A DNA stretch of 57,165 nucleotides, from positions 1 to 57,165 of the IMG/VR virus record IMGVR_UViG_3300049023_000036, one strand, 5' to 3'. The notes beneath the pieces are model-generated. The model did no database searches and was not told the origin of the DNA. It was given only the letters and a program-made list of their open reading frames with translations. Positions within the stretch are counted from its first letter, which is position 1; every line of letters starts with the position of its first letter. The position numbers and the translations under genes are program-made. This document shows positions 6,001 through 27,559 of the stretch, piece after piece. The stretch is from a virus.

Positions 6001-7488
6001 TGATGAAACTTCTTTTGTTGCCTCGGCCAATAATTCCTGTGATGTTTTTACTTCATCGGAACGTTTCCTAAATAGCAAATAAGCCCCAACAAGGGCCGTT
6101 ATCCCAACAACCAACGCTGTTGCCGGGTTTGCCATCATTGCCGCCGTAAGTGAACGCGTTGCAACCGCCGCGCCTGTTGTGGCTGATGTTTGCGCCGTTG
6201 TTGCAACAGTTTGCGCCGCCGTTGCTGCTGCATCCCTTTTGCGCATGATCGATGTCAAATAAATATTCAACGCCGATTCTTTTTCCAATACCCTTGATAG
6301 TTCCTGAACACCATTCAGAACCGCCAATGCAGCCATTGTTTTTTGAATGGCCTTTTCTGCTTCCTCATTCGATACACCAAATAAAGAAACTGCACCTGTT
6401 GCGGCGGCGAATCCACCAACCAAACCGCGAACACCATCAACCAACGCATCGATGCCGGATGAATCTGATGCAGCCAATTGAATGCCTCGGTTAACTTCCT
6501 CAAATGATTCTTTCAATTCAACCGCGCGCTTTTGCCATTCATCAAACATTGGTGAATTAGGGTTTGATGCCATCTGATCAATCAACTTCCTTAATTCAGT
6601 ACGGGCCGTTACTGTTTTTAATGCGAAATCCTGCAATTGGCCCGGCTTCAATCCTTTGATTTCATTTTTTAATGCTGAAATCTTATCGTTCAATTCTGTT
6701 CCTATTGATGCCTCGCGTTCCGCAACTGATAACTGTTCATATTGAATTTCCAATTGCTTCAGCGATAACTTTTTTTCTTCAATTGAACCGATTGATGCGC
6801 GAACCATTGCATCATATTCTTTCTGTCTCTGATTGATGTTATCCATCGAATCGGAAATCTGCTTTTCCTGTGCAGCTAATGCGCCGGATGCCTTGGCATA
6901 ATCTTCATCAGTTATGTTTCCTTTTTTCTTTGCATCATCAAGTTCAGTTTGGGCGGCTGCAACTTTCTGCATTTGCATTTCCAATTCAATCAATTCCTGA
7001 ATATATTCTTGCGTTGCCTGATCAAGTTCAGCATAAACATCTTTTGCAGATTCAATAATTGACATTGTTTCTTTGTCAATTCCGAAAGTTCTTTTCTGTT
7101 CTTCTTTTATTGGAAGTGCATTTTTTTGAATAACAGATTTCCCCAACTGATCCTGATATTCTTGCAACTGAATCATTTGTTCGTCCATTGATGCCGACCA
7201 ATTCATGTTCAGCTTTTCCCGGTTTTCATAAACCTGATTATCAATCTTGGTGATGGTTTGCGCAACTTCAGTTTGAATTCTTACCTGATCATCATTTATT
7301 TTCTTTGTTGTTGCCTGAACCTTTTGTTGAAGATCAGCAATCGGCGCGGCGATCACATCCGAATTAATTGCACCAACGCCCAACGTTGAAAGTATTTTCT
7401 GAATCGCTTTTGCATCCTCTGTTATTTGAGAATAATCGATTGATGCGCTCCATGCCAAACCGTTTGTTGCTGTTACTTCTGCGGGCAT
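3007..7488 (-). CDS. Tail tape measure protein
   Basis: 1493 aa, between the chaperone pair and the Dit/Tal-like genes. Long K/E/Q-rich heptad-like stretches and central hydrophobic segments (GGFAAATGAVSLFGV, NPATALVVGITALVGAYLLF). Confidence 0.9.
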   Translation of the reverse strand: MPAEVTATNGLAWSASIDYSQITEDAKAIQKILSTLGVGAINSDVIAAPIADLQQKVQATTKKINDDQVRIQTEVAQTITKIDNQVYENREKLNMNWSASMDEQMIQLQEYQDQLGKSVIQKNALPIKEEQKRTFGIDKETMSIIESAKDVYAELDQATQEYIQELIELEMQMQKVAAAQTELDDAKKKGNITDEDYAKASGALAAQEKQISDSMDNINQRQKEYDAMVRASIGSIEEKKLSLKQLEIQYEQLSVAEREASIGTELNDKISALKNEIKGLKPGQLQDFALKTVTARTELRKLIDQMASNPNSPMFDEWQKRAVELKESFEEVNRGIQLAASDSSGIDALVDGVRGLVGGFAAATGAVSLFGVSNEEAEKAIQKTMAALAVLNGVQELSRVLEKESALNIYLTSIMRKRDAAATAAQTVATTAQTSATTGAAVATRSLTAAMMANPATALVVGITALVGAYLLFRKRSDEVKTSQELLAEATKEVSSTYAEQQAKIVPYLAALKQGNLTENDRLNIYEKLKAINPSIVDGINAKTLSYDALTKNVRNYLNELKNQMKLESNSKAIQESLAIELDLESRIEKQKQIVELKKKEVAESKKVKIVIGGSSTGVGSNTQDRQSSLAEQERELARLEKAKDRQTKETEKLANASAGLVKTTNDQTGAVKRTVEVIDKEIAEKKKLQLQNSVNSKEWIGFQNEITKLEKEREAITGKTEKTRSSANKVENELNSILEKRTGILEQIAALERDAKQSGMLKQDSEIDRINQKYDEQVLALQKVNAEIEKYNKKNPTRKQELLGGGETARLQAARETELINAQYREEARVYIESLKDKQIAFDVFLQAQESGNTQLILASKEIYKDQLGEYSSYIEMLRGETMKIVAKSFTSPLNIGDMTKLQEFNKQYIDEVAKSKKRETELTLKTFSEALAASATFNDQRRELEVRHQKEIDALTKNYKGADLQNRLAILKEVHAQEIEDVENNAARQTKIYKKMNQDVVRFTREQLKDRLKEMEDALRNDNTLTPEVRQALKSYIDQLKQLIKTNTEAYETGVKLGEIGSKIGNIASALGSISDAAKQVNSDLGSIIESAANAGKLASSALNAASGFATGNIEQGISGTISAIGDIFNNIAAKRQSEKVAQQAVLDFQTRIMLGEMEMNAILAQRERDQVKLNKLKIDGLLAEQKLLEQQAKTTQKTFSDIFTQLQKENFISGQGTKEKKNWTAALLGGALGSLGTSRTEVVDQYASLMGKTFDDIEKLYLQGRLTPKALELFEQLKKIKQEGADIDALLQQNAESLRQVFTGTSSDAILDSIVDGFKNGLRSAQDFADTFEQLMQNAVLNALKYQVLEQPLKEFYEAFAADAQSDSVLTDNEILQLKNRFDLIIGNAGKSFEELQKITNIDFNNPNSTQGKGLTGAIKGITEQQADLLAGQFGGLRLTAIEILKFSTEQLSVMNDIRTNTSFIPMQAEFIESSNAVLKDIQLNGIKVK

Positions 7489-7498
7489 AAAAAAGAAT

Positions 7499-7699
7499 TT
7501 ATTTTATGTTTAAAAATGATGCTAATTCAACCGCGCTTTCAACCTCCGTTCCATCTTCTTCAGTTTTGATTCCATCTTTCTTTTCGCCGGGTTTTTTATT
7601 CGTTTTGAACTTCGGAATTGTTGCTGTAAACATCATCAGGTTTATGAACGAGATTTCCCAAAGGATTTGTTCAGTTGTAAACCTGAAATATTTAATCAT
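7499..7699 (-). CDS. Tail assembly chaperone, T-like -1 frame extension
   Basis: 66-aa ORF overlapping the stop of 7696..8184 (ATGA). It is in the -1 frame relative to that ORF and sits directly upstream of the tape measure. Confidence 0.5.
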   Translation of the reverse strand: MIKYFRFTTEQILWEISFINLMMFTATIPKFKTNKKPGEKKDGIKTEEDGTEVESAVELASFLNIK

Positions 7700-8184
7700 G
7701 CCTCCGATTGTTCCCCAAAGGCTATTGAACTCCTTTGTGTCGTTGGATTCATCTTCATCAAATTCGTTTGCCTGATGTAGATTATAGAACTGATAAAATT
7801 TCCGGTATCCATCTGTTTTAATATTACTTGAAAGATCGCAAGTAATTGTTCAGGCGTTATATTATTTTCAATAAGATCAATCAGTTTTTCGGATGGATCA
7901 TCTTTTGAATTCAAAAATGCTAATGCAACGATTTTGGAAATATCCCTTCCAACCTTGGAAAGAATAATAAGGGATAATTCATGAACAGATTCCGATTTGA
8001 AAAAATTTTCATCGATGGTTAAAATGATCTTTGAAATTTTGATCAACGTTCCAAGGAATAAAGGTTTGATTTCAAAATTGTGTTCCTTGGTGATTGTTTT
8101 CCGGGTGAACCAATGTTTTTTGTTTTCAGTAATCTTCACCCTCATTGGAGTTTGAAGAATTTGATCTGCTGATTCTTGTAACAT
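7696..8184 (-). CDS. Tail assembly chaperone (G-like)
   Basis: 162 aa, between the major tail protein gene and the tape measure, which is the canonical position. Confidence 0.6.
   Translation of the reverse strand: MLQESADQILQTPMRVKITENKKHWFTRKTITKEHNFEIKPLFLGTLIKISKIILTIDENFFKSESVHELSLIILSKVGRDISKIVALAFLNSKDDPSEKLIDLIENNITPEQLLAIFQVILKQMDTGNFISSIIYIRQTNLMKMNPTTQRSSIAFGEQSEA
7795..7801 (-). promoter_or_regulatory. Candidate -1 programmed frameshift heptamer A_AAT_TTT
   Basis: The minus strand reads GGA AAT TTT ATC in the zero frame of 7696..8184, so the heptamer is in correct X_XXY_YYZ phase. The -1 frame is open from about 7850 through to the 66-aa ORF. Confidence 0.5.
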
Positions 8185-14220: not shown

Positions 14221-15681
14221 TTATTCAACTGTCGGATCATCGTTGGTATCCTTATCATTCATAATGTTATCCAACTTTTTTTGTTCACTTAGTTCGGCGG
14301 CCTGTCTTTCATCCTCGATTCTTTGCTTTTCAATTTCAGGATCAGCAATCAACGGATTCTTTTCAATCGCGGTCTCTTTTGATAATATACCCGCATCAAT
14401 TGCATTGGCAAGAACGTCGATTTCCCCGGCAATATCTTTTGGAAGATAATATTCAAACATCGGTTTCATCTTCTGCATCTTCACCGCCTCAAATGCCGGG
14501 TTAACGGTGATCATTGCCGACTTCAGGAAATTCAATCTTCGCTGAACACCTATTCCGAAAATCTGTTCCTTGCGCGCTGCTTTCATGTGCGCGGATGTGA
14601 ACAATAACTTTATTGCAAACCCGGAAAATGTTCCAAGTTTTGACATCTGCGTAAATGATAAATCAGGCGTATCGCTGAAATCCATGATTAATGATCGAAG
14701 ATTTTCCTGTTCCAACTTTACCGATTCCGGCGATTGATCCCATGTCATGTATTCCGCTTTTGCGCCCGCCGCCAATTGAATAACTTTTCCTTCCTCGCCT
14801 TTTTTTGCGAAACCTTTAACATCACCTTCCAATTTAACCATCGGTGAACCGAAATAATCATTGGTATCAGCATGATTAGAATTTGATATTTCAAACCGTT
14901 CAATCATTTCCTGTACTTCATACCATTCAGGATGTTCCTGCGTATAATACACAACAGGTATTTTCTGAACAGGATTCGGCCCGCCTCCATCGTAATCAGT
15001 CCAACCATTATCAGTTTTTACATATTCGCTAATCTGTGTTGCCGTATAAACAGTTAACCGTTCTGTATCCTTTCCCTCGATCATTGATTTAAATAACCGG
15101 GCGAATGCAATCATATCACCATGTTCATTGAACGTTGGTAATAATTCATCGCCTGTTGAATTGGAAATTATTTTAACCCGGAATGATAAATTCACTTTTC
15201 CTTCATTTGCGGTTCCCATCCAATAATCAGAATCGGTTTCCAATTCTTCTGCATACCATATTTCCGCAACTTCAGTTTCAGAAAATAGTTTTTCCGCAAT
15301 CTGCATATCCAAATAAATCATTTTATTGTCCTCGATCACCTTGCGAACAACAGAAACAAGTTGATCCCCTGCATCGCTGATAAATGGCGCATCGATTTTA
15401 ATTGGATTGGCGCATAAAAATGTTGCTGCGGTTTGCGTGATTTTCTTTTGCATCGGGATCGGCAACCGGGTAACCGGAACAGGTTCTGCACCGCCGTTTG
15501 TGTTCACAATTTTATCCCGGCGCGCAATCGGATCGTTGATCTTATGATCCTTGGAATTATATTGTTTCCGGTAATCATCAAACTTAATATCCTTCTTTTC
15601 AGCTTTCAGCGCATCCAACAATTTTGCAGGATCGCCGGAAAGTGCATCAAATTGTTCTTGGTTCATGTGTAAATATTTCAA
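14221..15681 (-). CDS. Portal protein
   Basis: 486 aa, first gene of the head module and upstream of the MuF-like gene. Size, acidic C-terminus and position fit a portal. A second in-frame ATG lies at 15666. Confidence 0.85.
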   Translation of the reverse strand: MKYLHMNQEQFDALSGDPAKLLDALKAEKKDIKFDDYRKQYNSKDHKINDPIARRDKIVNTNGGAEPVPVTRLPIPMQKKITQTAATFLCANPIKIDAPFISDAGDQLVSVVRKVIEDNKMIYLDMQIAEKLFSETEVAEIWYAEELETDSDYWMGTANEGKVNLSFRVKIISNSTGDELLPTFNEHGDMIAFARLFKSMIEGKDTERLTVYTATQISEYVKTDNGWTDYDGGGPNPVQKIPVVYYTQEHPEWYEVQEMIERFEISNSNHADTNDYFGSPMVKLEGDVKGFAKKGEEGKVIQLAAGAKAEYMTWDQSPESVKLEQENLRSLIMDFSDTPDLSFTQMSKLGTFSGFAIKLLFTSAHMKAARKEQIFGIGVQRRLNFLKSAMITVNPAFEAVKMQKMKPMFEYYLPKDIAGEIDVLANAIDAGILSKETAIEKNPLIADPEIEKQRIEDERQAAELSEQKKLDNIMNDKDTNDDPTVE

Positions 15682-15813: not shown

Positions 15814-15841
15814 GGAACGCATGAACTGCGTTCCTTTTTTT
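15814..15841 (+). terminator. GC hairpin with its T-tract on the plus (antisense) strand
   Basis: GGAACGCA-tgaac-TGCGTTCC followed by TTTTTTT on the plus strand. On the coding strand the hairpin is preceded by an A-tract and followed by CTAAAAC, so there is no U-tract. Confidence 0.35.
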
Positions 15842-16886
15842 ATTCCGATAATCTTGCGTACAAATCAAATCGATATTTATTCCACGCGAACAGATTATAT
15901 TTTTCATTGGCCCATTCCCGCAATTCATGCGCTTTGTCAATTCCAAGTGAAGGATTTTTAACCAATCGATTCAGGTGATCAAACCAATCAGATTGTTTTT
16001 CAACCCAAAAAACAGGTGCATCAATATCATCTGAATATGGCGGAACTTTGGAAACAACAACCGGGATCATCTTGGCGGCTGCTTCCAACAACTTCAGGTT
16101 TGATTTGTGGGCGTTAAATGTATTGTTCAGCAACGGCACAATTGAACAATCAAAACCGTTATATGCCTCCATGTAGTGCATCAAGTCTTTATTTGGAATC
16201 CGCGTATAATTCGGCGCGATCTGAAAAACCTTTTCCATCTGCTTCCAAATCGGATTGTTCTGCACACCCGCCAATGCGAACCCGATCTTCAGATTCTTGA
16301 TTCTGTTCATTGGGTTTTGCAACAACCTGACATCTTCCAAGTGGGATGTTTGCCCGGTATATATCACCCGATAAATATCAGGATCAATCTTTGAACCCGG
16401 CGAAAATTGATCATATCCATACGGCAAGGCGTTCGGTATAACATGAACATTTTTATTGAACGGCAACAGTTTTTTTCGCAATCTTTCGGTTGTGCATGTT
16501 ACTGCATCCGCAATTTTTACGTTTTCAAGAATCAACTTTGCCTGATGATCGCGGAAATACTTGAAATTAGGGTGCTTAAAAGGTAGTTCAACCCAATCAT
16601 CCAAATCAACAACGATCCTCAATCCTTGGCGTTCCCTTGCTTTTAGGATATGGTTTATGTCAATTGGACAAACCCGGTTCCATACAACAACGCGTGATTT
16701 GTCGATAAATTCAAGTAATCGTTCAATTTCAAAATCTTGGTAAGTATCCGCATGAAGGTATTCATCTGCGTACATGAACGGCAATCGAACCCGGTGAAAA
16801 TCGCAACCGGATGTTCCGGTATAAAAAGGGAATGCTTTAATATTTCCCATCATCAAATTGTTTGTTGAAAATAATATATGGTTCAT
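15840..16886 (-). CDS. Glycosyltransferase, GT-B fold (GT1/GT4-like)
   Basis: 348 aa. The C-terminal half has KSNLKLLEAAAKMIPVVVSKVPPY, resembling the donor-binding helix of GT-B enzymes. Overlaps the GT2 gene end by 14-50 nt depending on the start used. Confidence 0.65.
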   Translation of the reverse strand: MNHILFSTNNLMMGNIKAFPFYTGTSGCDFHRVRLPFMYADEYLHADTYQDFEIERLLEFIDKSRVVVWNRVCPIDINHILKARERQGLRIVVDLDDWVELPFKHPNFKYFRDHQAKLILENVKIADAVTCTTERLRKKLLPFNKNVHVIPNALPYGYDQFSPGSKIDPDIYRVIYTGQTSHLEDVRLLQNPMNRIKNLKIGFALAGVQNNPIWKQMEKVFQIAPNYTRIPNKDLMHYMEAYNGFDCSIVPLLNNTFNAHKSNLKLLEAAAKMIPVVVSKVPPYSDDIDAPVFWVEKQSDWFDHLNRLVKNPSLGIDKAHELREWANEKYNLFAWNKYRFDLYARLSE

Positions 16887-17592
16887 CTTGTTGGAATGGG
16901 ATGTAGTAATTCCCGGTTAATCTGTATTCCTCAACAGCTTCATTGAATTTGATAGTGTTCCGATGCAATGATTCTGTTTTCATTTTCCTGTAATCTGAAT
17001 CAACGTCCATATCCGCGCCAATATGTTCTGAAGATAATCCATGAAGATAAAAATTCACATGTCCGGTTTCACGCGCGCGAAGTGCAAAATCAGAATCATC
17101 CATTCCATAAGGATGATAAATCGGATTGAAGAATCCAATAGTGTTAAACAATGCCCGCCCGAAAAACATTGTTCCAAAAACATTAGGGCCGGGATGAATG
17201 ACCATTCCGTTGTTCAGCTTTTCCGCCGGGTGTAATTTTTCAACGCAATGAATCCCTGCAATCCCTGCGTTCCTTACACATGGATAACTTTCAACCAATG
17301 CTTTCAGCCATCCATCAGGTAATAAAATATCATTGCCGATCAAAACAAAATAATCACCTGTTGCCTGACTTAACAAAAAGTTGTGCATCGGTGCGATTCC
17401 TTTATTTTCAGAATTTAGAACATGAACCGCCGGATTGAGTGATTTAATGTACTCGATCACCCTGCTATCCTGCGAACCATTATCGGCACACAATAATTCA
17501 TAGTCAACACCCGCGTTTTGTAATGCCTGATCAACGCAACGTTTTGTGATTTCGTACCGATCAATTGTCAATAACAGAATTGATACTTTCAT
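16837..17592 (-). CDS. Glycosyltransferase family 2 (GT-A fold)
   Basis: ATG at 17590-17592 gives MKVSILLLTIDRYEI.... Motifs CADNGSQD, NKGIAPMHN and GDYFVLIGNDILLPDGW are typical GT2 hallmarks. No C-terminal TM segments. Confidence 0.8.
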   Translation of the reverse strand: MKVSILLLTIDRYEITKRCVDQALQNAGVDYELLCADNGSQDSRVIEYIKSLNPAVHVLNSENKGIAPMHNFLLSQATGDYFVLIGNDILLPDGWLKALVESYPCVRNAGIAGIHCVEKLHPAEKLNNGMVIHPGPNVFGTMFFGRALFNTIGFFNPIYHPYGMDDSDFALRARETGHVNFYLHGLSSEHIGADMDVDSDYRKMKTESLHRNTIKFNEAVEEYRLTGNYYIPFQQDEPYIIFNKQFDDGKY

Positions 17593-17602
17593 GATTTTTG
17601 AT

Positions 17603-17884
17603 TTATATAAATTGATAAAAAACGAATCCAACGCCCAAATAAAGTAAATACAATACAATTCTGTCAATAAATTGATCGTACAATTCCTGATCTTCCTTTT
17701 TGGGCGATGGGTTTATATATCCAATGATTAACATTATACCCATTGCTTCAATCAGTCTTATTTCAGGCGCATTAAAAGTCGTTATTAAAAACCATTGGTA
17801 TAGTTTGTAAAAAACAAACCCGCCGCTAAACAGATTTAAAAACACCACTAATAGAACTGCACAAAATTTCCCAAAGTTTTCCAT
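17603..17884 (-). CDS. Small integral membrane protein (about 3 TM)
   Basis: 93 aa with hydrophobic spans FCAVLLVVFLNLFSGGFVF, LIEAMGIMLIIGYI and IVLYLLYLGVGFVFYQFI. Lies between the XRE and GT2 genes. Confidence 0.55.
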   Translation of the reverse strand: MENFGKFCAVLLVVFLNLFSGGFVFYKLYQWFLITTFNAPEIRLIEAMGIMLIIGYINPSPKKEDQELYDQFIDRIVLYLLYLGVGFVFYQFI

Positions 17885-17887
17885 GTT

Positions 17888-18169
17888 TTATGATTTTGCT
17901 TTTTTAATTCGTTTCAATATTTTTTTCGGCGATACAGGTTTGAAAAAATATTCCATGTTGATCCCCATCCAATAAGAAAACAGATACAACGAAATCACAT
18001 CAGGAACTTTGCCATTCATTACGCGGGATGTTGTTGATGCGCTCACTCCGATTTCCTTTGATGCTTCGCGCAATGAAAGATTTCGTTCCTTCAAATATTT
18101 TTGCATCGTTTCAGAAAAACAGGCTGAATCAAATTCAACCGTTTGTATTTTGTTCTTTGCTTTCGCCAT
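17888..18169 (-). CDS. XRE/Cro-type helix-turn-helix regulator
   Basis: 93 aa. LSLREASKEIGVSASTTSRVMNGK is a classic XRE-type HTH. A promoter-like element and repeats lie directly upstream. Confidence 0.75.
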   Translation of the reverse strand: MAKAKNKIQTVEFDSACFSETMQKYLKERNLSLREASKEIGVSASTTSRVMNGKVPDVISLYLFSYWMGINMEYFFKPVSPKKILKRIKKAKS

Positions 18170-18306: not shown

Positions 18307-18498
18307 TTAAATTTCAACTTTTATTTCGATGTCATACATGACCACTTCTCCAAAAAACCCTTTTAAATTTCTTTTTGATATTTCAATTTCAAGCTGAAGA
18401 GTTGGATCATTGTTTTTTCTGAATTCCTGAATCGCATCAGTTATTTTTTCTTTTAAGATTTTTTTATCTTCCTGAATCTGCTCGATTGTTTTACTCAT
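18307..18498 (-). CDS. Hypothetical protein
   Basis: 63-aa charged ORF, tightly packed on the coding strand. Confidence 0.45.
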   Translation of the reverse strand: MSKTIEQIQEDKKILKEKITDAIQEFRKNNDPTLQLEIEISKRNLKGFFGEVVMYDIEIKVEI

Positions 18499-18508
18499 GG
18501 TTTAATTT

Positions 18509-18727
18509 TTATTTTGGGAATCCCGTTCTGTCTGAATAAAATTTACTATTTGGATTCCTTGATAGTTGTTTGCCTAACTCAAATAACTGAATCGGGTTTT
18601 CATAATAAAGATGATATTTGCCTGAAACTATTTTTACATACAAGTTGATTTTTTCGGCGCAATACATAAACCAAGGATGTTGTTCCAAATCAATATCAAG
18701 TTCAATATAATCTTGGCATTCGTTCAT
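18509..18727 (-). CDS. Hypothetical protein
   Basis: 72-aa ORF with a 4-nt overlap with the LpxA-like gene. Confidence 0.45.
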   Translation of the reverse strand: MNECQDYIELDIDLEQHPWFMYCAEKINLYVKIVSGKYHLYYENPIQLFELGKQLSRNPNSKFYSDRTGFPK

Positions 18728-19350
18728 AAAGAATAACCGCGATTTAAACGTTCTGCTTCATGAAATAACTGATCTTCATAAGCGCGCCGGAATCTTTTAT
18801 TCGCATCACAATCAGTTAATGCAATAAAGTTTGAAGGATACATTTTCGCCGCTTCTTTTTTTATTGCAACAAGATTTGGCTTGATGTACTTCGCCGGGTT
18901 TCCTGCATACATTGAAAACGGGAACAGCTTCATTGATTTGGTGACAACTGCATTCATCCCGATCATGCAACCTTCAGGAACATTTACGTTTTGATGAATC
19001 GTTGCATTCAACCCGATAATCGTTCCCGCGCCGATAAAACAATGGCCACCAACTTTAACGCCGCAACTCAAAACAACATCATCACCAAGAACCGCATCAT
19101 GGCCAACATGCGAATGCGCCAATAAAACACATCCCTGATTGATGAAGGTTGTTCCGGTTGTTCCTGCATCAACTGTTACCAAATTACTGATGCGAACGTT
19201 TTTACCAATCACGACTGATCCATATTCGCGATTCCAAAAATCACGATGTTCAGGCGGGCCACCGATAACGGAAAACGGGCCAATGTATGTATCCGTTTTA
19301 TCCTCGATGATAACATTTTCATGAACGATTGCGGCGGGATGAATTTTCAT
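18724..19350 (-). CDS. LpxA-like hexapeptide-repeat acyltransferase (left-handed beta-helix), C-terminally truncated
   Basis: IHPAAIV, IGPFSVIGGPPEH, VVIGKNVRISNLVTVDAGT and LLAHSHVGHDAVLGDDVVL align with LpxA motifs, including the catalytic His region AH-x-x-HD. At 208 aa it lacks most of the LpxA helical C-domain. Confidence 0.75.
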   Translation of the reverse strand: MKIHPAAIVHENVIIEDKTDTYIGPFSVIGGPPEHRDFWNREYGSVVIGKNVRISNLVTVDAGTTGTTFINQGCVLLAHSHVGHDAVLGDDVVLSCGVKVGGHCFIGAGTIIGLNATIHQNVNVPEGCMIGMNAVVTKSMKLFPFSMYAGNPAKYIKPNLVAIKKEAAKMYPSNFIALTDCDANKRFRRAYEDQLFHEAERLNRGYSL

Positions 19351-19586
19351 TGTTGATATTTTACTATTAGAGAATATAAATCATAATAGGTTGTTGAAGT
19401 TATTTCATTTGCGATGAACAATTTATTCAATAATGATTTTGCACCAAAGAATACTTCATTAACCATTTTTGTTGCAACCGGATTTGTTGGCATTTGTTTA
19501 CGCGTGTTCTTTTGGCTTTCAATTGCCGCGCTGATTGAAAGTTTTATGAAAAGAACTTCCTCGCTATTCAACTCAATCTTTTGCAT
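19347..19586 (-). CDS. Hypothetical protein
   Basis: 79-aa ORF with coupled overlaps on both sides. Confidence 0.45.
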   Translation of the reverse strand: MQKIELNSEEVLFIKLSISAAIESQKNTRKQMPTNPVATKMVNEVFFGAKSLLNKLFIANEITSTTYYDLYSLIVKYQQ

Positions 19587-19836
19587 TTAATTTTTGTTTA
19601 TCGGTTTTGTATCTTTTTACAAGATGAATAACTTCATCAATATCGGTATTCAATAACACAACTTTATGCAAGTGCCTGAAGTAATAAAAAATCTTCTGAT
19701 GATAACCTGAAATCTTTTCCAAATCAGAAACCCGGATTATTAAATTCCTTATTGACCGATTTGCCAGCTTGCAATTATGTTCCTGAACAAAGTAATCATA
19801 AATATCTTTGTATTCAGGATTGATTGATAGTTGCAT
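19573..19836 (-). CDS. Hypothetical protein
   Basis: 87-aa ORF on the coding strand, tightly packed. Confidence 0.45.
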   Translation of the reverse strand: MQLSINPEYKDIYDYFVQEHNCKLANRSIRNLIIRVSDLEKISGYHQKIFYYFRHLHKVVLLNTDIDEVIHLVKRYKTDKQKLNAKD

Positions 19837-20182
19837 AATGTTTTTTTGCTAATTGTCTTAATACTTTATAAACGAATGAATGATTTGTTCCGGTGATCCT
19901 GATCAGTTCCTTTCGCATCATATGCCGATTGTTTAAGATGAATTGAATATCTGATTCCCTTTTCATTCTTTTATGTTTCTGAAATCTGCGAACAATACAA
20001 ATTTTATCACATCTCAAGATTGTTGCAATTGCTTCAGGTGAACAGGTGAACAAATTATCATTGATGAAATCCTTTTCATCTTTGGTGAACTTTCTCATGG
20101 CTTCAGTACGTGAAATAAAATGTTGAACATGCAAACCGACATAATAACAACCAACCCAAAACAAATGGCGATCAATAACCAT
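19814..20182 (-). CDS. Hypothetical protein, possibly DNA-binding
   Basis: 122 aa, with an alternative ATG at 20098. The basic C-terminal part ELIRITGTNHSFVYKVLRQL looks HTH-like. Weak call. Confidence 0.35.
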   Translation of the reverse strand: MVIDRHLFWVGCYYVGLHVQHFISRTEAMRKFTKDEKDFINDNLFTCSPEAIATILRCDKICIVRRFQKHKRMKRESDIQFILNNRHMMRKELIRITGTNHSFVYKVLRQLAKKHYATINQS

Positions 20183-20219
20183 CCTTCAGAATCATTTAAT
20201 ATTTTATCGATTAGTTTTT

Positions 20220-20759
20220 TCATAAAATCATTTTAATATCATCAATTAAATTATAAATGCCCGGCGATGCCATAAGTACCATAAACAATATTGTCAACAG
20301 CGCATCTTTCGATTCTGATTTTTGTGGCTTGTACTTCATGCAAGGGCAAGTTGATACAACACAAATATCTGATTCAAGTTTGGGCGGAATTGTAGTTATT
20401 GTAACCGTCCGATGATCTTCTTTCTTGTGCCCGCATTCACAAACATCAGGTTCATCAGGAACCGGATTCAGAATATCTTCAACCGTTTTTATTTCGGCGC
20501 GAACAGATTCCAATTGTTTTGACAATGATTTTTCCATCATCTTCAGCGCATCAAGATGAACGTTCATCGGGTTAACGTAGGTGTATGAATCAGGCGCGAA
20601 TCCTCGCGCATATTCCCGCGCTTCAGCTTCATGGGTGAATTCCATTCCACCCATGATAATAAATTGCGTTGGATCGGCTGCATTGAATTCAAGGAACGCC
20701 CACATCCCGGTTTGTTTGTTCTGCTTAACTTGCCGAACTCTAAATTGATTATCTGACAT
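20220..20759 (-). CDS. Tail-anchored membrane protein with a Cys/His cluster
   Basis: 179 aa. CECGHKKEDH...CVVSTCPC suggests metal binding. C-terminal TM segment LLTILFMVLMASPGIY. Confidence 0.45.
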   Translation of the reverse strand: MSDNQFRVRQVKQNKQTGMWAFLEFNAADPTQFIIMGGMEFTHEAEAREYARGFAPDSYTYVNPMNVHLDALKMMEKSLSKQLESVRAEIKTVEDILNPVPDEPDVCECGHKKEDHRTVTITTIPPKLESDICVVSTCPCMKYKPQKSESKDALLTILFMVLMASPGIYNLIDDIKMIL

Positions 20760-21138
20760 CTGATTGTTTTTTTAAATTATAATACTTTTTTAATAATCTG
20801 TTATATTGATCGTTCGTTATAATTCCAAATTTGTTAGGTGACTCGCTTTCAAGTAGATTTACTTTAACATCAAGTAACATCATTGCAAGGTTTGCAATAT
20901 CTGCGCAATTTTCCTTAATACGATCAACATCATCATTCATTAATGCCGACTGAAGTTTCCCGACATGATAATATAATTCACTAATCCAGTATTTATTTTC
21001 CTTTACTTCAAGCCAACCGTTTGAACCTGTTCTATCACCTTTTTGATAATTTTCTTCTAATTCCTGATACATGTATTGCATAAATACGGGCAATATCTTT
21101 TGATACATTTCATGATCAGGTGATTGATTGTTTTCCAT
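20749..21138 (-). CDS. MazG-like all-alpha nucleotide pyrophosphohydrolase (tentative)
   Basis: 129 aa. ISELYYHVGKLQSAL...IKENCADIANLAMMLLD resembles the paired acidic helices of phage MazG-type NTP-PPases. Confidence 0.5.
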   Translation of the reverse strand: MENNQSPDHEMYQKILPVFMQYMYQELEENYQKGDRTGSNGWLEVKENKYWISELYYHVGKLQSALMNDDVDRIKENCADIANLAMMLLDVKVNLLESESPNKFGIITNDQYNRLLKKYYNLKKQSDVR

Positions 21139-21148
21139 GATTTATATT

Positions 21149-21499
21149 TTATTGAAACGATACATTCCCGGATGAATCAACATCCATATACGGCCCGGAT
21201 TCTTCATTTCGTAATTTCCTGAATTCAAATCGATCTGCATATTGCGGATAATGTTCAATAAAAAACCGCGCGTAATATGATTGGTACGCATCATTGATTT
21301 TAAAGTTCTGATCTGATGATCGAAGAAATTCATTCCAACGAATCCAATTGATAATCAATTTTGCGCTGATCTTTTTTCGGCCCTTGTATATCGCTCCCAA
21401 TGCCTGTGTTTCAAACTGCCTGTATATGTGCGGATTTTCTTCATGGAACTTATTGAAACCATCCCTGATTGATCGCCCGTTTAATTGTTTGTAATTCAT
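21149..21499 (-). CDS. Conserved-looking hypothetical phage protein
   Basis: 116 aa (FNKFHEENPHIYRQF...LIINWIRWNEF...FKINDAYQSYYARF). No function known to me. Confidence 0.5.
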   Translation of the reverse strand: MNYKQLNGRSIRDGFNKFHEENPHIYRQFETQALGAIYKGRKKISAKLIINWIRWNEFLRSSDQNFKINDAYQSYYARFFIEHYPQYADRFEFRKLRNEESGPYMDVDSSGNVSFQ

Positions 21500-21717
21500 G
21501 ATGATGGATTGAATGCTTTAATAGTTGAAATTGCTTTTACGCATTTGAAATTGTATTTCGATTTCCAATGCGACCATTTTGCGCCGGAATCCTTTTCAAA
21601 TGATCTTATACAATCTTTTCTTTTATTCGCGAATGAATGATGAACAATAAATGTTCCGCCTGTTCTTGGATGGCCTGTATTGATTATAACCCATCCCATT
21701 TGTGATTCGCTTATCAT
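21496..21717 (-). CDS. Hypothetical protein
   Basis: 73-aa ORF with a 4-nt overlap with the downstream gene. Confidence 0.45.
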   Translation of the reverse strand: MISESQMGWVIINTGHPRTGGTFIVHHSFANKRKDCIRSFEKDSGAKWSHWKSKYNFKCVKAISTIKAFNPSS

Positions 21718-21809
21718 TACCGGAACATTTTCATGATGAAATAAATAATGACCGCCGCAATATCAACGGCGATCATTGTTTTCAATGCTCTAATCAGAAT
21801 CACTTTCAT
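21717..21809 (-). CDS. Micro-ORF: 30-aa single-pass membrane peptide
   Basis: Hand-translated MKVILIRALKTMIAVDIAAVIIYFIMKMFR. Its ATG overlaps the TGA of the upstream gene (ATGA) and its TAA overlaps the next ATG (TAATG). Confidence 0.35.
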   Translation of the reverse strand: MKVILIRALKTMIAVDIAAVIIYFIMKMFR

Positions 21810-23137
21810 GATATATAGTTTCGTAGGGTTTCCAATACACCCGCCGCAACTTCTTTATTCACTTTCAAATATTTATCGTAATCATCAACCAACATCTGAA
21901 GAACTTCAGGATCGATTTCAATAAAATCAGATTCGCCAACATATTTGATATGCCGATCAGTTATTTCCCTCCAAGTATTTTTATCATCAGGATCAGGCGC
22001 GATCTGCATCCCGGAAACAGGATCGGTTTCCAAATCTGCAATCTTGCCGCCGAAAATCCTGCTTGCCCACCTTATAACTCCGGGAACCTTTTTTGATGTT
22101 ACAATCATGTTTTTTTGTTCATCAATTTCAAATTCGATTTTATCATTCTGCTGATTGAAGTAAAAATATTTTCCCGGCTTCAATTCGCTGACATTTATGC
22201 CCGCGCTTTCTTCAGGAAACAATTGAACGGGTTCTTCAATATCATGCGCGCCAATTCTTTCACCGGGATTTATTACGGATACATTGTCTGATCCCGCAAC
22301 AATTTCACGTTCTGAATTGACAATTCTATTATTATGAAACTCTGCTTTTGGTTGCATATGCCGTTCAAATGACTTGAATTCTTGATCAGAATATTCCCAA
22401 TACTTCAGATTGATTTTTTGTTCTTCATTTAGGAATCCATCAGAATAATTGAACACATTGTTGGTGTTATTATATACGGCCCTTACAGGTTTCCCCGGTT
22501 CCGGCCATTGACCGAATTCGGCAAATCCGAATGATGGTTTTGCTTCCTTGTAAAACTCAATGAAAACCTTTCGATCATGACCATTCATTTCAATACATTC
22601 AACAATATCCGTTTTGATTAATCCATCCATTATTGAATAAACATCACCTGAATTTGTTTTGTAAACGAATGACCAAGGCCACATATTTTTTCCTTTATCC
22701 CTTGCCGAATAAACTCTATAAGGTTCGCATTTTTCCGGTGAAAACCATTCGCCTTGATTTGATTGTTTTTCTTCAGGATCAATTTCAAGTTTCCAAAATT
22801 CAATAATCCCTTTTATATCATAGTGCCGATGGTTATAATTCAAATCGGCTGTTGCACGATCTCCAATGTATCTAAAAAAACAACGCCCGCCGAATGATGA
22901 ACGTGTTTTTTTGAATGTTTCGATTTCTTCCGCGTCCATGTATTTCCAAGTACATTCATTTAAGGTTTTTGAATCCTTCGATGCGAATATATTTCCGGTG
23001 AACGCGTTGCACAAATCACCCGACATATTCAAATACGAATTAACAACGCCGGAATGCGTTGGCGCATTAACATGTATCAATGTAAAAGGCGTTGGATTAA
23101 AATCCTTGATGAATTTGAATTTTGATTGTTTTTCCAT
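21806..23137 (-). CDS. Hypothetical protein (443 aa orphan)
   Basis: Long uninterrupted ORF on the coding strand. I recognise no motif. Confidence 0.55.
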   Translation of the reverse strand: MEKQSKFKFIKDFNPTPFTLIHVNAPTHSGVVNSYLNMSGDLCNAFTGNIFASKDSKTLNECTWKYMDAEEIETFKKTRSSFGGRCFFRYIGDRATADLNYNHRHYDIKGIIEFWKLEIDPEEKQSNQGEWFSPEKCEPYRVYSARDKGKNMWPWSFVYKTNSGDVYSIMDGLIKTDIVECIEMNGHDRKVFIEFYKEAKPSFGFAEFGQWPEPGKPVRAVYNNTNNVFNYSDGFLNEEQKINLKYWEYSDQEFKSFERHMQPKAEFHNNRIVNSEREIVAGSDNVSVINPGERIGAHDIEEPVQLFPEESAGINVSELKPGKYFYFNQQNDKIEFEIDEQKNMIVTSKKVPGVIRWASRIFGGKIADLETDPVSGMQIAPDPDDKNTWREITDRHIKYVGESDFIEIDPEVLQMLVDDYDKYLKVNKEVAAGVLETLRNYIS

Positions 23138-23139
23138 GA

Positions 23140-23235
23140 TTAAATATTTGAGTATGTATAAATATAAACGATTATGTAAACGATAACCGTTCCGATCAAC
23201 AGCGCATCAATTTTGGTTTGGGGTTTTGTTTTCAT
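23140..23235 (-). CDS. Micro-ORF: 31-aa single-pass membrane peptide
   Basis: Hand-translated MKTKPQTKIDALLIGTVIVYIIVYIYTYSNI. It fills the gap between two genes. Confidence 0.3.
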   Translation of the reverse strand: MKTKPQTKIDALLIGTVIVYIIVYIYTYSNI

Positions 23236-23247
23236 TTATGGGTTTGA

Positions 23248-23652
23248 TTAAAAAGTTCCAATAACATCGTTTCGCATCATTGCGGCATTGTATAGAATGA
23301 TGCAGTAAAATATAAACAACGCGATTGCAGCAATGAACACAATGATTCCTGTTTTGCTTTCAGTTGGATCAATGTTCTTGCACCACCAACGGCGAATGAT
23401 AAACTTCCATGCGGGAACTTCAAATTTGAAAGTACAGTTTTCAACCTCACAACCAACGCCCGCATTAAAAACAGGAAAAGTGTTTTTTGGAAGTACAATA
23501 CCGGATGATGGCAAATGATAAATCCGGGTTTTTATTCCTGTCCTTTTTCTTACAATTAGAATACTATTTTTCATTATTGAAAAATCAGATAATTCAATTG
23601 GTTGATCATTTTTAGGATCGATGAAAAATTTTTGATTCTCGATTGTTTTCAT
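23248..23652 (-). CDS. Tail-anchored membrane protein
   Basis: 134 aa with C-terminal TM segment GIIVFIAAIALFIFYCIILY. Confidence 0.5.
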   Translation of the reverse strand: MKTIENQKFFIDPKNDQPIELSDFSIMKNSILIVRKRTGIKTRIYHLPSSGIVLPKNTFPVFNAGVGCEVENCTFKFEVPAWKFIIRRWWCKNIDPTESKTGIIVFIAAIALFIFYCIILYNAAMMRNDVIGTF

Positions 23653-23915
23653 GACTTTATTTTTTTTAAATGAATGGCGGTTAAATATTCAGGCGTCCAC
23701 TTCACATTGAAATCATATTCATGATGGCATGATCTGCACAACGCCATAAGATTTTCAATTTTATCCTGTTCATGCTTCCGTTTCTTTCCAAACTTGCTTT
23801 GTGCAATTATATGCGCAATATCAACAGCAGGACTTTCGCAAATTTCGCAAGGGATATATTCGCCCGGTGCAAAACCAAAATATTCTAAATAAACTTTTGT
23901 ATGATTCTGCATCAA
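23649..23915 (-). CDS. HNH endonuclease
   Basis: 88 aa. CEIC...DIAHI...NLMALCRSCHHEYD is an HNH / zinc-ribbon core. Confidence 0.75.
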   Translation of the reverse strand: MMQNHTKVYLEYFGFAPGEYIPCEICESPAVDIAHIIAQSKFGKKRKHEQDKIENLMALCRSCHHEYDFNVKWTPEYLTAIHLKKIKS

Positions 23916-24184
23916 CGGTGATTGTTGGTAATTCTTAATTGCTCAACAGCGCGAACAAAGTTTTCCCTTTCCCTTTGAAGTTCATCATGCTGAATTTGCC
24001 TGTTCTTTTCTGATAACTGATCGGAAAATATATTCAATATCTTTCCTGAAGTCAACCCAATACCAAAATGTAAAAATGTCTTATCAAATGATTCAGGAAA
24101 ATCTTCGATTTCGGTGATATATGAAACATGACCATAATAAATATGATATGACCCAATCCACACAAATAAAGTAGTATTTAACAT
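23912..24184 (-). CDS. Hypothetical protein
   Basis: 90-aa ORF with a 4-nt overlap with the HNH gene. Confidence 0.45.
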   Translation of the reverse strand: MLNTTLFVWIGSYHIYYGHVSYITEIEDFPESFDKTFLHFGIGLTSGKILNIFSDQLSEKNRQIQHDELQRERENFVRAVEQLRITNNHR

Positions 24185-24195
24185 GATGTTTGTTT

Positions 24196-24438
24196 TTAGT
24201 CTAATGTGATTTTTTCAAATTCCTTTTCCGACATCTTATCGCCACCGGAAATTAACATCAAACATTTTGCAACCGTTGCAATTGATCCTGTTTGATCGTT
24301 CATTATACAAAACCCGTAATTGGATTGGTAATGTAATGAGACAGGAAACAAAAACATTTCCTTCAGTTCCTTTTCAATCGATTCTGTTTTTCTTTTAAAC
24401 TCTAATTCGATGATCTTTAAATCGTAAATGATATTCAT
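24196..24438 (-). CDS. Hypothetical protein (paralogue-like to 24464..24712)
   Basis: 80 aa. Shares the pattern YQ-x3-G-x2-I ... C ... KE-F/L with its neighbour. Confidence 0.45.
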   Translation of the reverse strand: MNIIYDLKIIELEFKRKTESIEKELKEMFLFPVSLHYQSNYGFCIMNDQTGSIATVAKCLMLISGGDKMSEKEFEKITLD

Positions 24439-24463
24439 GATGATTGTTTTTGATGATGATGTT

Positions 24464-24712
24464 TTATATCTCGTATTTTCTCAAATCCTCTTTTTTAAAT
24501 GACCCGTACTTTTTGATATGATCAATACATTCACTCAAAAGGCAAACCCGCGCATCATCTTCTTCAACTATTGTTAAACCGTCCGATGGTTGATATTGAA
24601 TAAAAAACTTGAACTTGATTTTTGACTTTATTTTTCTTTCAAATGATGATTCTATTTTCAAGTATTCATTATGCGCATCGCTAAATTTTTTAAACTCATT
24701 TGATATATCCAT
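24464..24712 (-). CDS. Hypothetical protein (paralogue-like to 24196..24438)
   Basis: 82 aa, first gene downstream of terL. Confidence 0.45.
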   Translation of the reverse strand: MDISNEFKKFSDAHNEYLKIESSFERKIKSKIKFKFFIQYQPSDGLTIVEEDDARVCLLSECIDHIKKYGSFKKEDLRKYEI

Positions 24713-24854
24713 GATGATGATGTTTTAAAAAGGCCCGCATCCTAAAAAGGAACGGGCGGTTAATTTCTGCTTATGAAACAAAGTTAATTAACACGCTTGC
24801 TGTTGCATGTCGGCAACAATTTAGACAAATTTTTTAATTCGTGAAACTTTTCTT

Positions 24855-26438
24855 CTAAAAAAAGAAATTGGCGGCATTATCACCCTTCTTTGCCTTTGTT
24901 GTAGGTAGATCAGGAACAGGATAGAACGTATTAGCCAAAGCATCCATTTTATCGGGTGATCTTTTTAAGCGCGATTTAATATCCTCCTTTGGTTCGATCT
25001 GAATCTTTCCATCTGATCGGAATTTATACATTACCTCGGTTAATTCCTGCGTTAATTCATCATCCTTTGGCAGCATTGCCTTTGAACCAAGTGCAGGATT
25101 CAACCAATCGCGAACGGCCCAAAATAGATATGCGCGCATGTTCAGGAAAGTATATATTTCAGTCGCATCTTTCAACGGCGTATCACCCTGCTTTGCTCCT
25201 TCAGAATATTTGACTGAATATATTTTATCTGAAAGGTGATCATGTCCGGGTTTTTCACCAAGTTCAATCAGGCGCGAATAAACTCCCGCACCCTCGCCGA
25301 TGGTATCAATAAACGCCTGTCCATAGGTACCATTGAATTCATTGTAATTGGCGCGTAAAACATTGTTGATCTTTCCGGCAACTTCCATATGAATCATCTG
25401 ATTGTTCCCGAAAAATTTAGTGATGTCTGTAACGAAATTATTTTGGCGCGAAACAAAAACGTTCGCATCCCGGCCCATGCCTGCAACATCACATCCCAAT
25501 CGTAATTGACCTTCAGGTTTTAATCCTGCGTTCATCCATTCTTCCCGGCGTTTTTGGGCCAACTCGATCCAATGCAACGGAATTAATTTATCCTCTGATT
25601 CTTTCGGGAACATCCCGCGAACCTTTACCCGGAACAAGTCGTTCGGGCGATATGTAACACCATCAAAAATAAAATCACCTTCACCATCATTGAATTCATG
25701 CGGCGCAATACGTTCGCACCATGTATTGACTTTATCCAATATCCAATGATAATCTACTTGGCCCGGGTAAATGTTTTTACGATGAATAACATTCGGCGCG
25801 GTTAAACTGTCCAATCTGAATTTGTGAAACCTTGGCGATTTGAAAGAATCGGCTGCATACCCGATTGAATTATTCGGGTTGAATACAATCAGTAATCTTG
25901 ATTCACCTTGGAGGTTTCCCTCAATCGCGGAAAATGTATCAACTGCAATACCTGATGCTTCCGTAACAATGAACATCGTATTAACGGCATGAAATCCCGA
26001 CCATGCTTCATGATTGTGTTCATCAGCTTTGAACCCGGTTAAAAACCATTCTTCAGATTCAGTTCTGATTCCATCGGTTAACAACTTGCCATGAAGGAAC
26101 CGGGCGCGCCGGAATATACGGGCAACTTCAGGCATCATGATGTTGGATACTTGTCGGCCCGTTGGTGCAGTCATTGCAACTTTTGTGTTTTCTATCAATT
26201 CGCCGTTCTTCCATTTGGGCGTTAAATAGAAAAAACACAATGCAGCAACGGCGGAAACGAAATCTTTTCCCCTTGCCGTTCCACTTGCTACGGTTGTCAT
26301 TTTATTGACCTGTACTGAATCAAGAATCTGTTCCTGTTCAGGATCAAGATTTACCTGTAATATTTCCCGCGCGAATAATTTCCATCCGCCGGGTTTCCGC
26401 CACCTGATGAACGGATCATGAAATTTATTCCGCTTCAT
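24855..26438 (-). CDS. terL: Terminase large subunit
   Basis: 527 aa. Walker-A-like VASGTARGKDF, LLIVFNPNN, and a nuclease-type acidic motif CDVAGMGRDANVFV. 14-nt overlap with the terS-like gene. Confidence 0.85.
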   Translation of the reverse strand: MKRNKFHDPFIRWRKPGGWKLFAREILQVNLDPEQEQILDSVQVNKMTTVASGTARGKDFVSAVAALCFFYLTPKWKNGELIENTKVAMTAPTGRQVSNIMMPEVARIFRRARFLHGKLLTDGIRTESEEWFLTGFKADEHNHEAWSGFHAVNTMFIVTEASGIAVDTFSAIEGNLQGESRLLIVFNPNNSIGYAADSFKSPRFHKFRLDSLTAPNVIHRKNIYPGQVDYHWILDKVNTWCERIAPHEFNDGEGDFIFDGVTYRPNDLFRVKVRGMFPKESEDKLIPLHWIELAQKRREEWMNAGLKPEGQLRLGCDVAGMGRDANVFVSRQNNFVTDITKFFGNNQMIHMEVAGKINNVLRANYNEFNGTYGQAFIDTIGEGAGVYSRLIELGEKPGHDHLSDKIYSVKYSEGAKQGDTPLKDATEIYTFLNMRAYLFWAVRDWLNPALGSKAMLPKDDELTQELTEVMYKFRSDGKIQIEPKEDIKSRLKRSPDKMDALANTFYPVPDLPTTKAKKGDNAANFFF

Positions 26439-26989: not shown

Positions 26990-27559
26990 TTACTTTTCCC
27001 TTACTGTTCTAAGGAAGGGTTTATCATTGATAATTTTCATTGTGAATCCTTCAGGTTTCAGTTTATTGAACCAATGTTCTGCATCGGATTCGGATTCAAA
27101 TTCTATGTTCAGGAACCATTTTGTTCCGCGATCTTTTGCCTTTGATGATTCCGGTTCCGGTTCTTCAGGTTCAAACGATGGAACATCCGCACCCCATTCA
27201 TCAAGTTTAAAATGATCCCATTCGTTGGCAAGTTCTTCAGTATCCCATTCCCCGTAATTCAGATTGTCTTTAATCAGGAATTCTTTCTTTTCATCTTCAG
27301 TTAGATCGAACCGTTGGGATACACAATCCGGTTCAACTTCAGTTATGCCGATATGCTTCAATGCTGCGAACCTCATATTTCCGCCAAGGATCACCCGGTT
27401 TTCATCAATGATGATCGGGCGCATGGATAGCATTTTTGGGAATTCTTCGATTGACTTGACCAATTTTTTGAACTTGGAATCTTTGATGATCCTTGGATTT
27501 TTCGGATTCGGAATCAAGGTATCAAGTTGAATCTTTTCCGGTTGTTTTGATTTTGCCAT
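26990..27559 (-). CDS. ParB-like nuclease domain protein
   Basis: 189 aa. LIPNPKNPRII and ILGGNMRFAALK match the ParB/Srx N-terminal domain. Acidic C-terminal half. Confidence 0.75.
   Translation of the reverse strand: MAKSKQPEKIQLDTLIPNPKNPRIIKDSKFKKLVKSIEEFPKMLSMRPIIIDENRVILGGNMRFAALKHIGITEVEPDCVSQRFDLTEDEKKEFLIKDNLNYGEWDTEELANEWDHFKLDEWGADVPSFEPEEPEPESSKAKDRGTKWFLNIEFESESDAEHWFNKLKPEGFTMKIINDKPFLRTVREK

Follow-up and report, generated by a model that had tools for sequence, protein, structure and literature searches.

In LpxA, the active sites lie at the interfaces between subunits, and a helical C-terminal domain helps to bind UDP and probably the acyl carrier protein (ACP). A further beta-helix enzyme is known from the pathway to UDP-2,3-diacetamido-2,3-dideoxy-glucuronic acid, UDP-GlcNAc3NAcA, in which it N-acetylates the 3-amino group (PMC10622841). 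That pathway slot is filled by WbpD/WlbB (PDB 3MQG), a short trimeric beta-helix enzyme that uses acetyl-coenzyme A (PMC10622841), and likewise by Pcryo_0615 of Psychrobacter cryohalolentis K5 (PDB 8E62), which its PDB title describes as [quoted passage not shown]. In virome surveys, viral "lpxA" is counted among lipid A genes solely on the strength of annotation (PMC9529941, PMC13547368, PMC10653327): annotation pipelines label the family "UDP-N-acetylglucosamine acyltransferase", and phage control of lipid A is then deduced from the label. Here, we analyzed one such gene in the IMG/VR record IMGVR_UViG_3300049023_000036, the full 57,165 bp of which are referred to as the window. The gene, at 18724-19350 on the minus strand, starts with ATG and encodes a left-handed beta-helix (LbH) protein of 208 amino acids (aa). 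The window is a virus record that is complete and has direct repeats at its termini, and the initial annotation of the gene as phage encoded was therefore correct. We propose, with a probability of about 0.6, that the gene encodes an active, presumably trimeric LbH acyltransferase that works with a GT2 glycosyltransferase and a GT4-like, GT-B fold glycosyltransferase encoded nearby, transferring a short acyl group to a UDP-N-acetylhexosamine (UDP-HexNAc)-type sugar or to a nascent glycan. The protein is most likely an acetyltransferase, predicted to feed or finish the glycan of the two glycosyltransferases.

Comparison with LpxA revealed a protein that keeps the active site residues of this enzyme and lacks several of its other features. 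In a Pfam scan, the window protein matched Hexapep repeats only, with no match to PF13720, the helical C-terminal domain 2 of LpxA. Its best profile matches were the NCBIfam LpxA equivalogs TIGR01852 and NF003657, which spanned positions 36-205 of 264 (E value, 1e-31) and scored 107.6 and 109.3 bits, less than half of the curated LpxA cut-offs of 231.05 and 226 bits. The NeuD/PglD/VioB profile TIGR03570 came second, with 73.9 bits against a cut-off of 160.8, and LpxD reached 45 bits. Alignment with the LpxA of Escherichia coli MG1655 placed H81, H84, and D85 of the window protein at H122, H125, and D126, H103 at H144, H119 and Q120 at H160 and Q161, and N159 at N198; these residues and the fold are common to the window protein and E. 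coli LpxA (PDB 1LXA). The catalytic motif H81-V-G-H84-D85, equivalent to LpxA H122-x-x-H125-D126, is encoded at 19096-19110 on the minus strand and lies in the segment LLAHSHVGHDAVLGDD (residues 76-91). Together with IHPAAIV (residues 3-9) and IGPFSVIG (residues 23-30), this accounts for the open reading frame (ORF) and all of the motifs that the initial annotation had named. At the position of LpxA G173, the chain-length ruler of that enzyme, the window protein has M132, and the short family to which it belongs has Met or Ala. Two coils of the beta-helix, at approximately residues 35-64 of E. coli LpxA, are without a counterpart in the window protein. Identity to the host LpxA was about 28%, and the window protein as modeled with AlphaFold (pLDDT, 92.7) reached a TM score of only about 0.5 against LpxA structures. 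Judged by sequence, the window protein is a real LpxA homologue, with a similarity far above chance. Its earlier description as a truncated LpxA homologue was borne out as to the homology, the retained catalytic residues, and the absent C-terminal domain, and it has to be amended in that two coils of the helix are absent as well.

To place the protein among its relatives, a tree of 63 rows was calculated with IQ-TREE (LG+C20) and rooted on E. coli LpxD. An LpxA clade with support of 97/92 contained E. coli and three Chitinophaga host copies and excluded the window protein. Instead, the window protein fell in a 29-row clade (100/97) of short metagenomic proteins, short Chitinophaga copies, and a Pcryo_0615-like gene from a Psychrobacter genome, the row of which was nested in a 21-row clade (96/95). 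In line with this, the best solved-structure match of the window protein was 8e62 (189 aa; E value, 1e-38), ahead of the best LpxA structure, at 3e-23. Pairwise comparison with 8e62 gave 42% identity over 165 aa (E value, 1e-45), and superposition of the AlphaFold model gave a TM score of 0.84-0.88 and a root mean square deviation of 1.0 Å over 159 columns, at 45% identity. Pcryo_0615 is, like the phage proteins, a short beta-helix of about 160-190 aa that lacks LpxA domain 2, and it has the His-x-x-His-Asp, His, His-Gln, and Asn positions in common with the window protein; its donor and active-site details are presumed here from the PDB title and general knowledge. WbpD/WlbB is only a distant relative, 3mqg being outside the top 60 matches of the window protein. 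NeuD, PglD, and VioB acetylate nucleotide sugars and take part in glycan assembly alongside GT4 and GT2 glycosyltransferases, in which the phage LbH proteins would resemble them; however, the window protein lacks the Rossmann-like N-terminal domain PglD_N and scores below the TIGR03570 cut-off. Collectively, the scores below the curated cut-offs, the position outside the LpxA clade, and the grouping with a sugar N-acetyltransferase identify the window protein, at the level of sequence, as something other than an LpxA orthologue, and the claim of LpxA membership does not hold beyond homology.

The genomic setting of the Pcryo_0615-like gene provided a control for how such profile matches should be read. 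The Psychrobacter genome encodes a near-identical copy of 8e62 (E value, 7e-111), flanked on one side by a UDP-sugar 6-dehydrogenase and a GFO/IDH/MocA oxidoreductase and on the other by a DegT aminotransferase, followed by Wzx and a GT4. This gene order is that of the WbpA/WbpB/WbpD/WbpE layout, with the Pcryo_0615-like gene in the predicted WbpD slot. The next-best solved relatives of its product were LpxAs (about 1e-19), with WlbB/WbpD (3mqg) at 1.5e-7, and its best profile matches were likewise the LpxA equivalogs, again below threshold (119-121 bits). A characterised N-acetyltransferase therefore shows the same pattern, and an LpxA profile as best match is not evidence of LpxA function. 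The initial annotation had set LpxA against generic sugar acetyltransferases without LpxA-specific residues; the best characterised relative did turn out to be a sugar acetyltransferase, although LpxA-type residues are present in the window protein.

These results bear directly on the reading of the gene as a functional phage LpxA, which would 3-O-acylate UDP-GlcNAc from acyl-ACP and thereby boost or redirect the lipid A synthesis of the infected host. The LpxA equivalogs as top profiles and the conserved equivalents of H122, H125, D126, H144, H160, Q161, and N198 agree with such an enzyme, as does the annotation of these genes as lpxA in virome papers. However, among the LpxA membership features examined, only the catalytic and substrate-site residues were found; the score, PF13720, the full-length helix, and the clade all spoke against membership, as did the pattern seen with the characterised N-acetyltransferase and the Met or Ala at the G173 position. 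Furthermore, the host genomes already encode LpxA: each of the Chitinophaga hosts has a full-length LpxA (324-327 bits) besides the short copy. The phage gene is linked to no other lpx gene, and the neighboring GT-B is not LpxB-like. A phage LpxA is thus highly improbable. An LpxA + LpxB pair was considered separately and ruled out, since the GT-B profile has no likeness to LpxB (GT19): in hhalign, it matched E. coli LpxB with a probability of 0.4%, compared with 229 columns and an E value of 3e-4 against a GT4.

Residue conservation was next determined across 168 unique members of the short family. The equivalents of H125, D126, and Q161 were invariant in all 168, and those of H160 (167/168), N198 (166/168), H122 (164/168), and H144 (156/168) were nearly so. 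Because the catalytic residues are kept across the family, its members appear to be active enzymes. The initial annotation had suggested a dominant-negative or decoy subunit, which would enter mixed trimers with the LpxA of the host and so impair lipid A synthesis. The conservation argues against this, since a decoy could do without the catalytic residues. Active sites at subunit interfaces and the retained beta-helix core of the phage protein are what such a mechanism would draw on. Nevertheless, the low identity to the host LpxA and a helix shorter than its own by two coils speak against mixed trimers, and the tight coupling or fusion to GT2 described below indicates a role in a pathway, which makes a decoy scarcely credible.

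The short family is large and occurs at many viral loci. A search of 1.84 billion representatives with its profile recovered 1,184 clusters (50% identity) at an E value of 1e-30 or lower, almost all of 130-280 aa, with a typical member of about 160 aa. A pattern scan of IMG/VR with the family alignment yielded at least 575 confirmed viral loci; pattern scans with the single protein gave almost no matches, and the family alignment was needed. The initial annotation had called the gene unusual for a phage, which cannot be maintained given this number and the virome papers that already list "lpxA". Among species-representative genomes, close relatives were found only in Chitinophagaceae. In GenBank phages, there was no close LbH homologue (best identity, 30%) and no nucleotide match to the region; PHROGs contained only a weak family of unknown function for LbH, and BFVD had nothing above 26% identity. 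The LbH module is common among phages that have not been cultured and is lacking in cultured ones. Taken together, the evidence indicates that this large family, at least, does something other than lipid A synthesis.

The C-terminal tail varies between members, most of which stop at about residue 160. In the window protein, residues 160-208 (18727-18873, minus strand) take the place of the LpxA helical domain and are modeled as two helices, at 160-170 and 181-204, with a sequence unrelated to that domain. This tail is common only to the metagenomic protein P0002; the tails of other members are variable and mutually nonhomologous, with a trace of PF13720 in basal members only. As a separate observation, the 865-aa metagenomic protein P0130 combines several beta-helix acyltransferase modules with PglD_N and CoA-binding domains, and one stretch of it scores strongly against the short-family profile.

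To explore the relationship between LbH and the neighboring glycosyltransferases, linkage was counted in 81 sampled viral LbH loci. In the window, the GT2 is encoded at 16837-17592 on the minus strand (PF00535; E value, 5e-12), with a likely ATG start at 17592 in a reading frame that remains open to a TTG at 17667, and the GT-B is encoded at 15840-16886 on the same strand (phrog_7162; E value, 6e-65; weak Pfam match to Glyco_trans_1_4). A homologue of the window GT2 was present in 74-75 of the 81 loci and a homologue of the window GT-B in 67. The order GT-B > LbH > GT2 was seen in 57 loci and the window order, LbH > GT2 > GT-B, in 18. Between the stop codon of LbH and the start codon of GT2, the spacing was mostly -4, -1, or 0 nucleotides. 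Moreover, two metagenomic proteins, P0133 (423 aa) and P0148 (412 aa), are natural fusions of an N-terminal LbH with a C-terminal GT2; the GT2 half of P0133 is 37% identical to the window GT2 (E value, 4e-37), and that of P0148 is of a different type. The conserved linkage, the overlapping stop and start codons, and the natural fusions strongly support the earlier suggestion that the phage protein works for the neighboring glycosyltransferases. The distance between them had been given as three small genes; there are in fact four (72, 63, 93, and 93 aa) before GT2. The model of GT2 is a soluble GT-A (pLDDT, 89) whose nearest folds are WrtF, the prophage protein TarP, and ppGalNAc-transferases; the modeled fold is too generic a GT-A to point to one acceptor. 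The profile of GT-B is GT4-like, with MshA and PglA as best PDB relatives.

From these comparisons we infer the donor, the acceptor, the regiochemistry, and the target of the LbH activity as follows. The clade would descend from the LpxA lineage as a "mini-LpxA" that lost two coils and the C-terminal helical domain. It would use the LpxA-type His-Asp machinery to transfer an acetyl or another short acyl group either to a nascent glycan or to the N or O at position 3 of a UDP-HexNAc-type sugar, and the likely donor would be an acyl-coenzyme A rather than acyl-ACP. Together, LbH, GT2, and GT-B would build an acetylated short glycan on a virion protein or on a host envelope polymer, and the three genes would form a mobile module placed beside the packaging genes of uncultured Chitinophagaceae phages. 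Several results weigh against this proposal. In the window, four small genes intervene between LbH and GT2, and the two are not coupled. A sugar dehydrogenase or an aminotransferase for a 3-amino sugar was missing from all 81 viral loci, and Pfam scans of the window found no WbpA/WbpB/WbpE-type enzymes. A supply of 3-amino sugar was seen neither in the loci nor in the hosts, so the acceptor may differ from that of Pcryo_0615. In addition, the branch of the Pcryo_0615-like row is long (1.35), which makes its exact place within the clade less certain.

We regard it as unlikely that the phage protein has the exact activity of Pcryo_0615, N-acetylating a host-made UDP-GlcNAc3N(A) and thereby supplying a diacetamido sugar to the glycosyltransferases or diverting an envelope precursor. 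The two proteins share clade and fold, and a host DegT aminotransferase is 48-49% identical to the WbpE-like enzyme of Psychrobacter. However, this DegT gene (L193:131-3947 and L195:140-3997) is divergent from a Kdo transferase gene and followed by a UDP-glucose 6-dehydrogenase gene, a locus that looks like one for lipid A or core modification, Arn-like rather than Wbp-like. A search of the hosts at an E value of 1e-20 yielded no WbpB-like dehydrogenase. Whereas the Pcryo_0615 gene shares an O-antigen-type operon with the genes for making its amino-sugar substrate, those of the dehydrogenases and the aminotransferase, the phage loci never hold amino-sugar genes; the phage LbH is instead coupled or fused to GT2, and the window copy has a two-helix tail of its own.

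The position of the module may bear on its target. In the window, it lies between the large terminase gene (24855-26438, minus strand), which forms the upstream boundary of the region, and the portal gene (14221-15681, minus strand), which is directly downstream of GT-B. Glycosyltransferase genes within or next to virion structural genes are also a feature of the virion-glycosylation cassettes of mycobacteriophages (Freeman et al. 2023, as cited in PMC11256854), and soluble phage glycosyltransferases among or next to structural genes are found in these sets and, as TarP, in a Staphylococcus aureus prophage. The mycobacteriophage and TarP sets differ in that they have no LpxA-like acyltransferase as far as found, and the hosts here are Bacteroidota. 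Placement by the packaging and portal genes would fit decoration of the virion, and a host surface polymer is an equally possible target; the capsid and neighboring virion proteins, however, have no Ser/Thr-rich tails. We tentatively suggest, as a possibility that is still doubtful, that mini-LpxA, GT2, and GT4 form a self-contained mobile module whose acetylated glycan coats Bacteroidota phage virions or masks a host receptor. If true, the module would be the first of its kind beyond the actinobacteriophages, and the "viral lpxA/lipid A" auxiliary metabolic genes of virome surveys would be systematically misassigned.

A different target to be considered is phage DNA, which the module might hypermodify with an acetylated glycan in the manner of the glycosyltransferases that act on 5-hydroxymethylcytosine or 5-hydroxycytosine. 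The module adjoins packaging genes, and mono- to trisaccharides are known to be assembled on DNA by phage GT-A and GT-B enzymes (bioRxiv 10.1101/2023.12.21.572611; PMC13326640). In Justusliebigvirus, GT-B homologues are located by replication genes, near a weak match to a TET-associated glycosyltransferase. However, neither a thymidylate-synthase-like hydroxymethylase nor a TET/JBP enzyme or cytosine methyltransferase turned up in Pfam scans of the window, an absence that is not proven given that many window ORFs are unannotated, and no such enzymes were present among the conserved neighbors. A hexapeptide acyltransferase is also unmentioned in both of these reports. We consider DNA as the target quite improbable.

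Homologues of the window GT-B were also observed in 146 records of cultured phages, namely, Justusliebigvirus, Phapecoctavirus, and Klebsiella myoviruses. They often occur as two paralogues annotated as "putative disaccharide synthase." These homologues adjoin two small glycosyltransferase-like genes and the genes for primase and DNA polymerase, as seen in Escherichia phage JohannJBalmer (MZ501084.1; positions 4707-7883). The match to a TET-associated glycosyltransferase in the myovirus loci is in one small gene, and these loci have no LbH partner.

Relatives of the window phage were found integrated in cultivable hosts. In Chitinophaga sp. RCC_12 and C. varians KACC 19415, the order terminase > LbH > GT2 > GT-B > portal > capsid lies inside large contigs (loci L006 and L007), and the terminases and portals match those of the window with E values of 1e-197 and 1e-126, respectively. 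In one of these relatives, an integrase is located approximately 24 kb away. Structural genes of a second module-bearing lineage, known from contigs of 33-35 kb, were found in other Chitinophaga loci; in this lineage, the module lies just upstream of the terminase rather than between terminase and portal as in the window, L006, and L007. Neither lineage is closely related to a cultured phage, and the terminases of the two are unrelated, suggesting that the module is passed from one phage lineage to another. With the annotation corrected and a compact three-enzyme module defined, the glycan product and its target could be determined via the integrated relatives in Chitinophaga.

Within the integrated loci, the LbH copies, taken as the longest ORF, are 319 aa (L006:7968-8927) and 254 aa (L007:7887-8651). 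The L006 ORF extends about 150 aa past the beta-helix, and this extension has no Pfam match or likeness to the tail of the window protein. In 65 of 81 viral loci of the 33-35 kb lineage, a small membrane protein (about 79 aa) that carries a conserved C-x-x-C motif is encoded approximately 1.8 kb upstream of LbH (for example, L121:2601-2903); it is unrelated to the 93-aa membrane protein of the window.

The window genes are nearly all on the minus strand, as are those that follow. The LbH ATG overlaps the stop codon of an upstream 79-aa ORF (19347-19586) by 4 nucleotides (ATGA), and the LbH stop codon overlaps the ATG of the downstream 72-aa ORF in the same manner. This 72-aa ORF and a 63-aa ORF occupy 18307-18727; neither they nor the 79-aa ORF have family matches. 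They are followed within the module by a 93-aa XRE-type helix-turn-helix protein (17888-18169; PF01381 HTH_3; E value, 1e-5) and, between LbH and GT2, a 93-aa small membrane protein of hydrophobic sequence (17603-17884; phrog_2169 "membrane protein"; E value, 3e-10). A promoter and terminator scan of 15.5-20.3 kb gave fewer sites than shuffled sequence and was not used, and a scan of the window found no tyrosine integrase, serine recombinase/resolvase, or tRNA gene. In L006 and L007, LbH directly follows the terminase, so the approximately 5.5 kb of small ORFs at 19351-24854 of the window look like an insertion; an HNH endonuclease (23649-23915) and a 443-aa orphan are encoded in this interval. 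Upstream of the terminase genes, at 26990-27559, the window encodes a 189-aa protein with a ParB-like nuclease domain, homologues of which occur in 20 module-bearing viral loci, some of them fused to a DNA methyltransferase.

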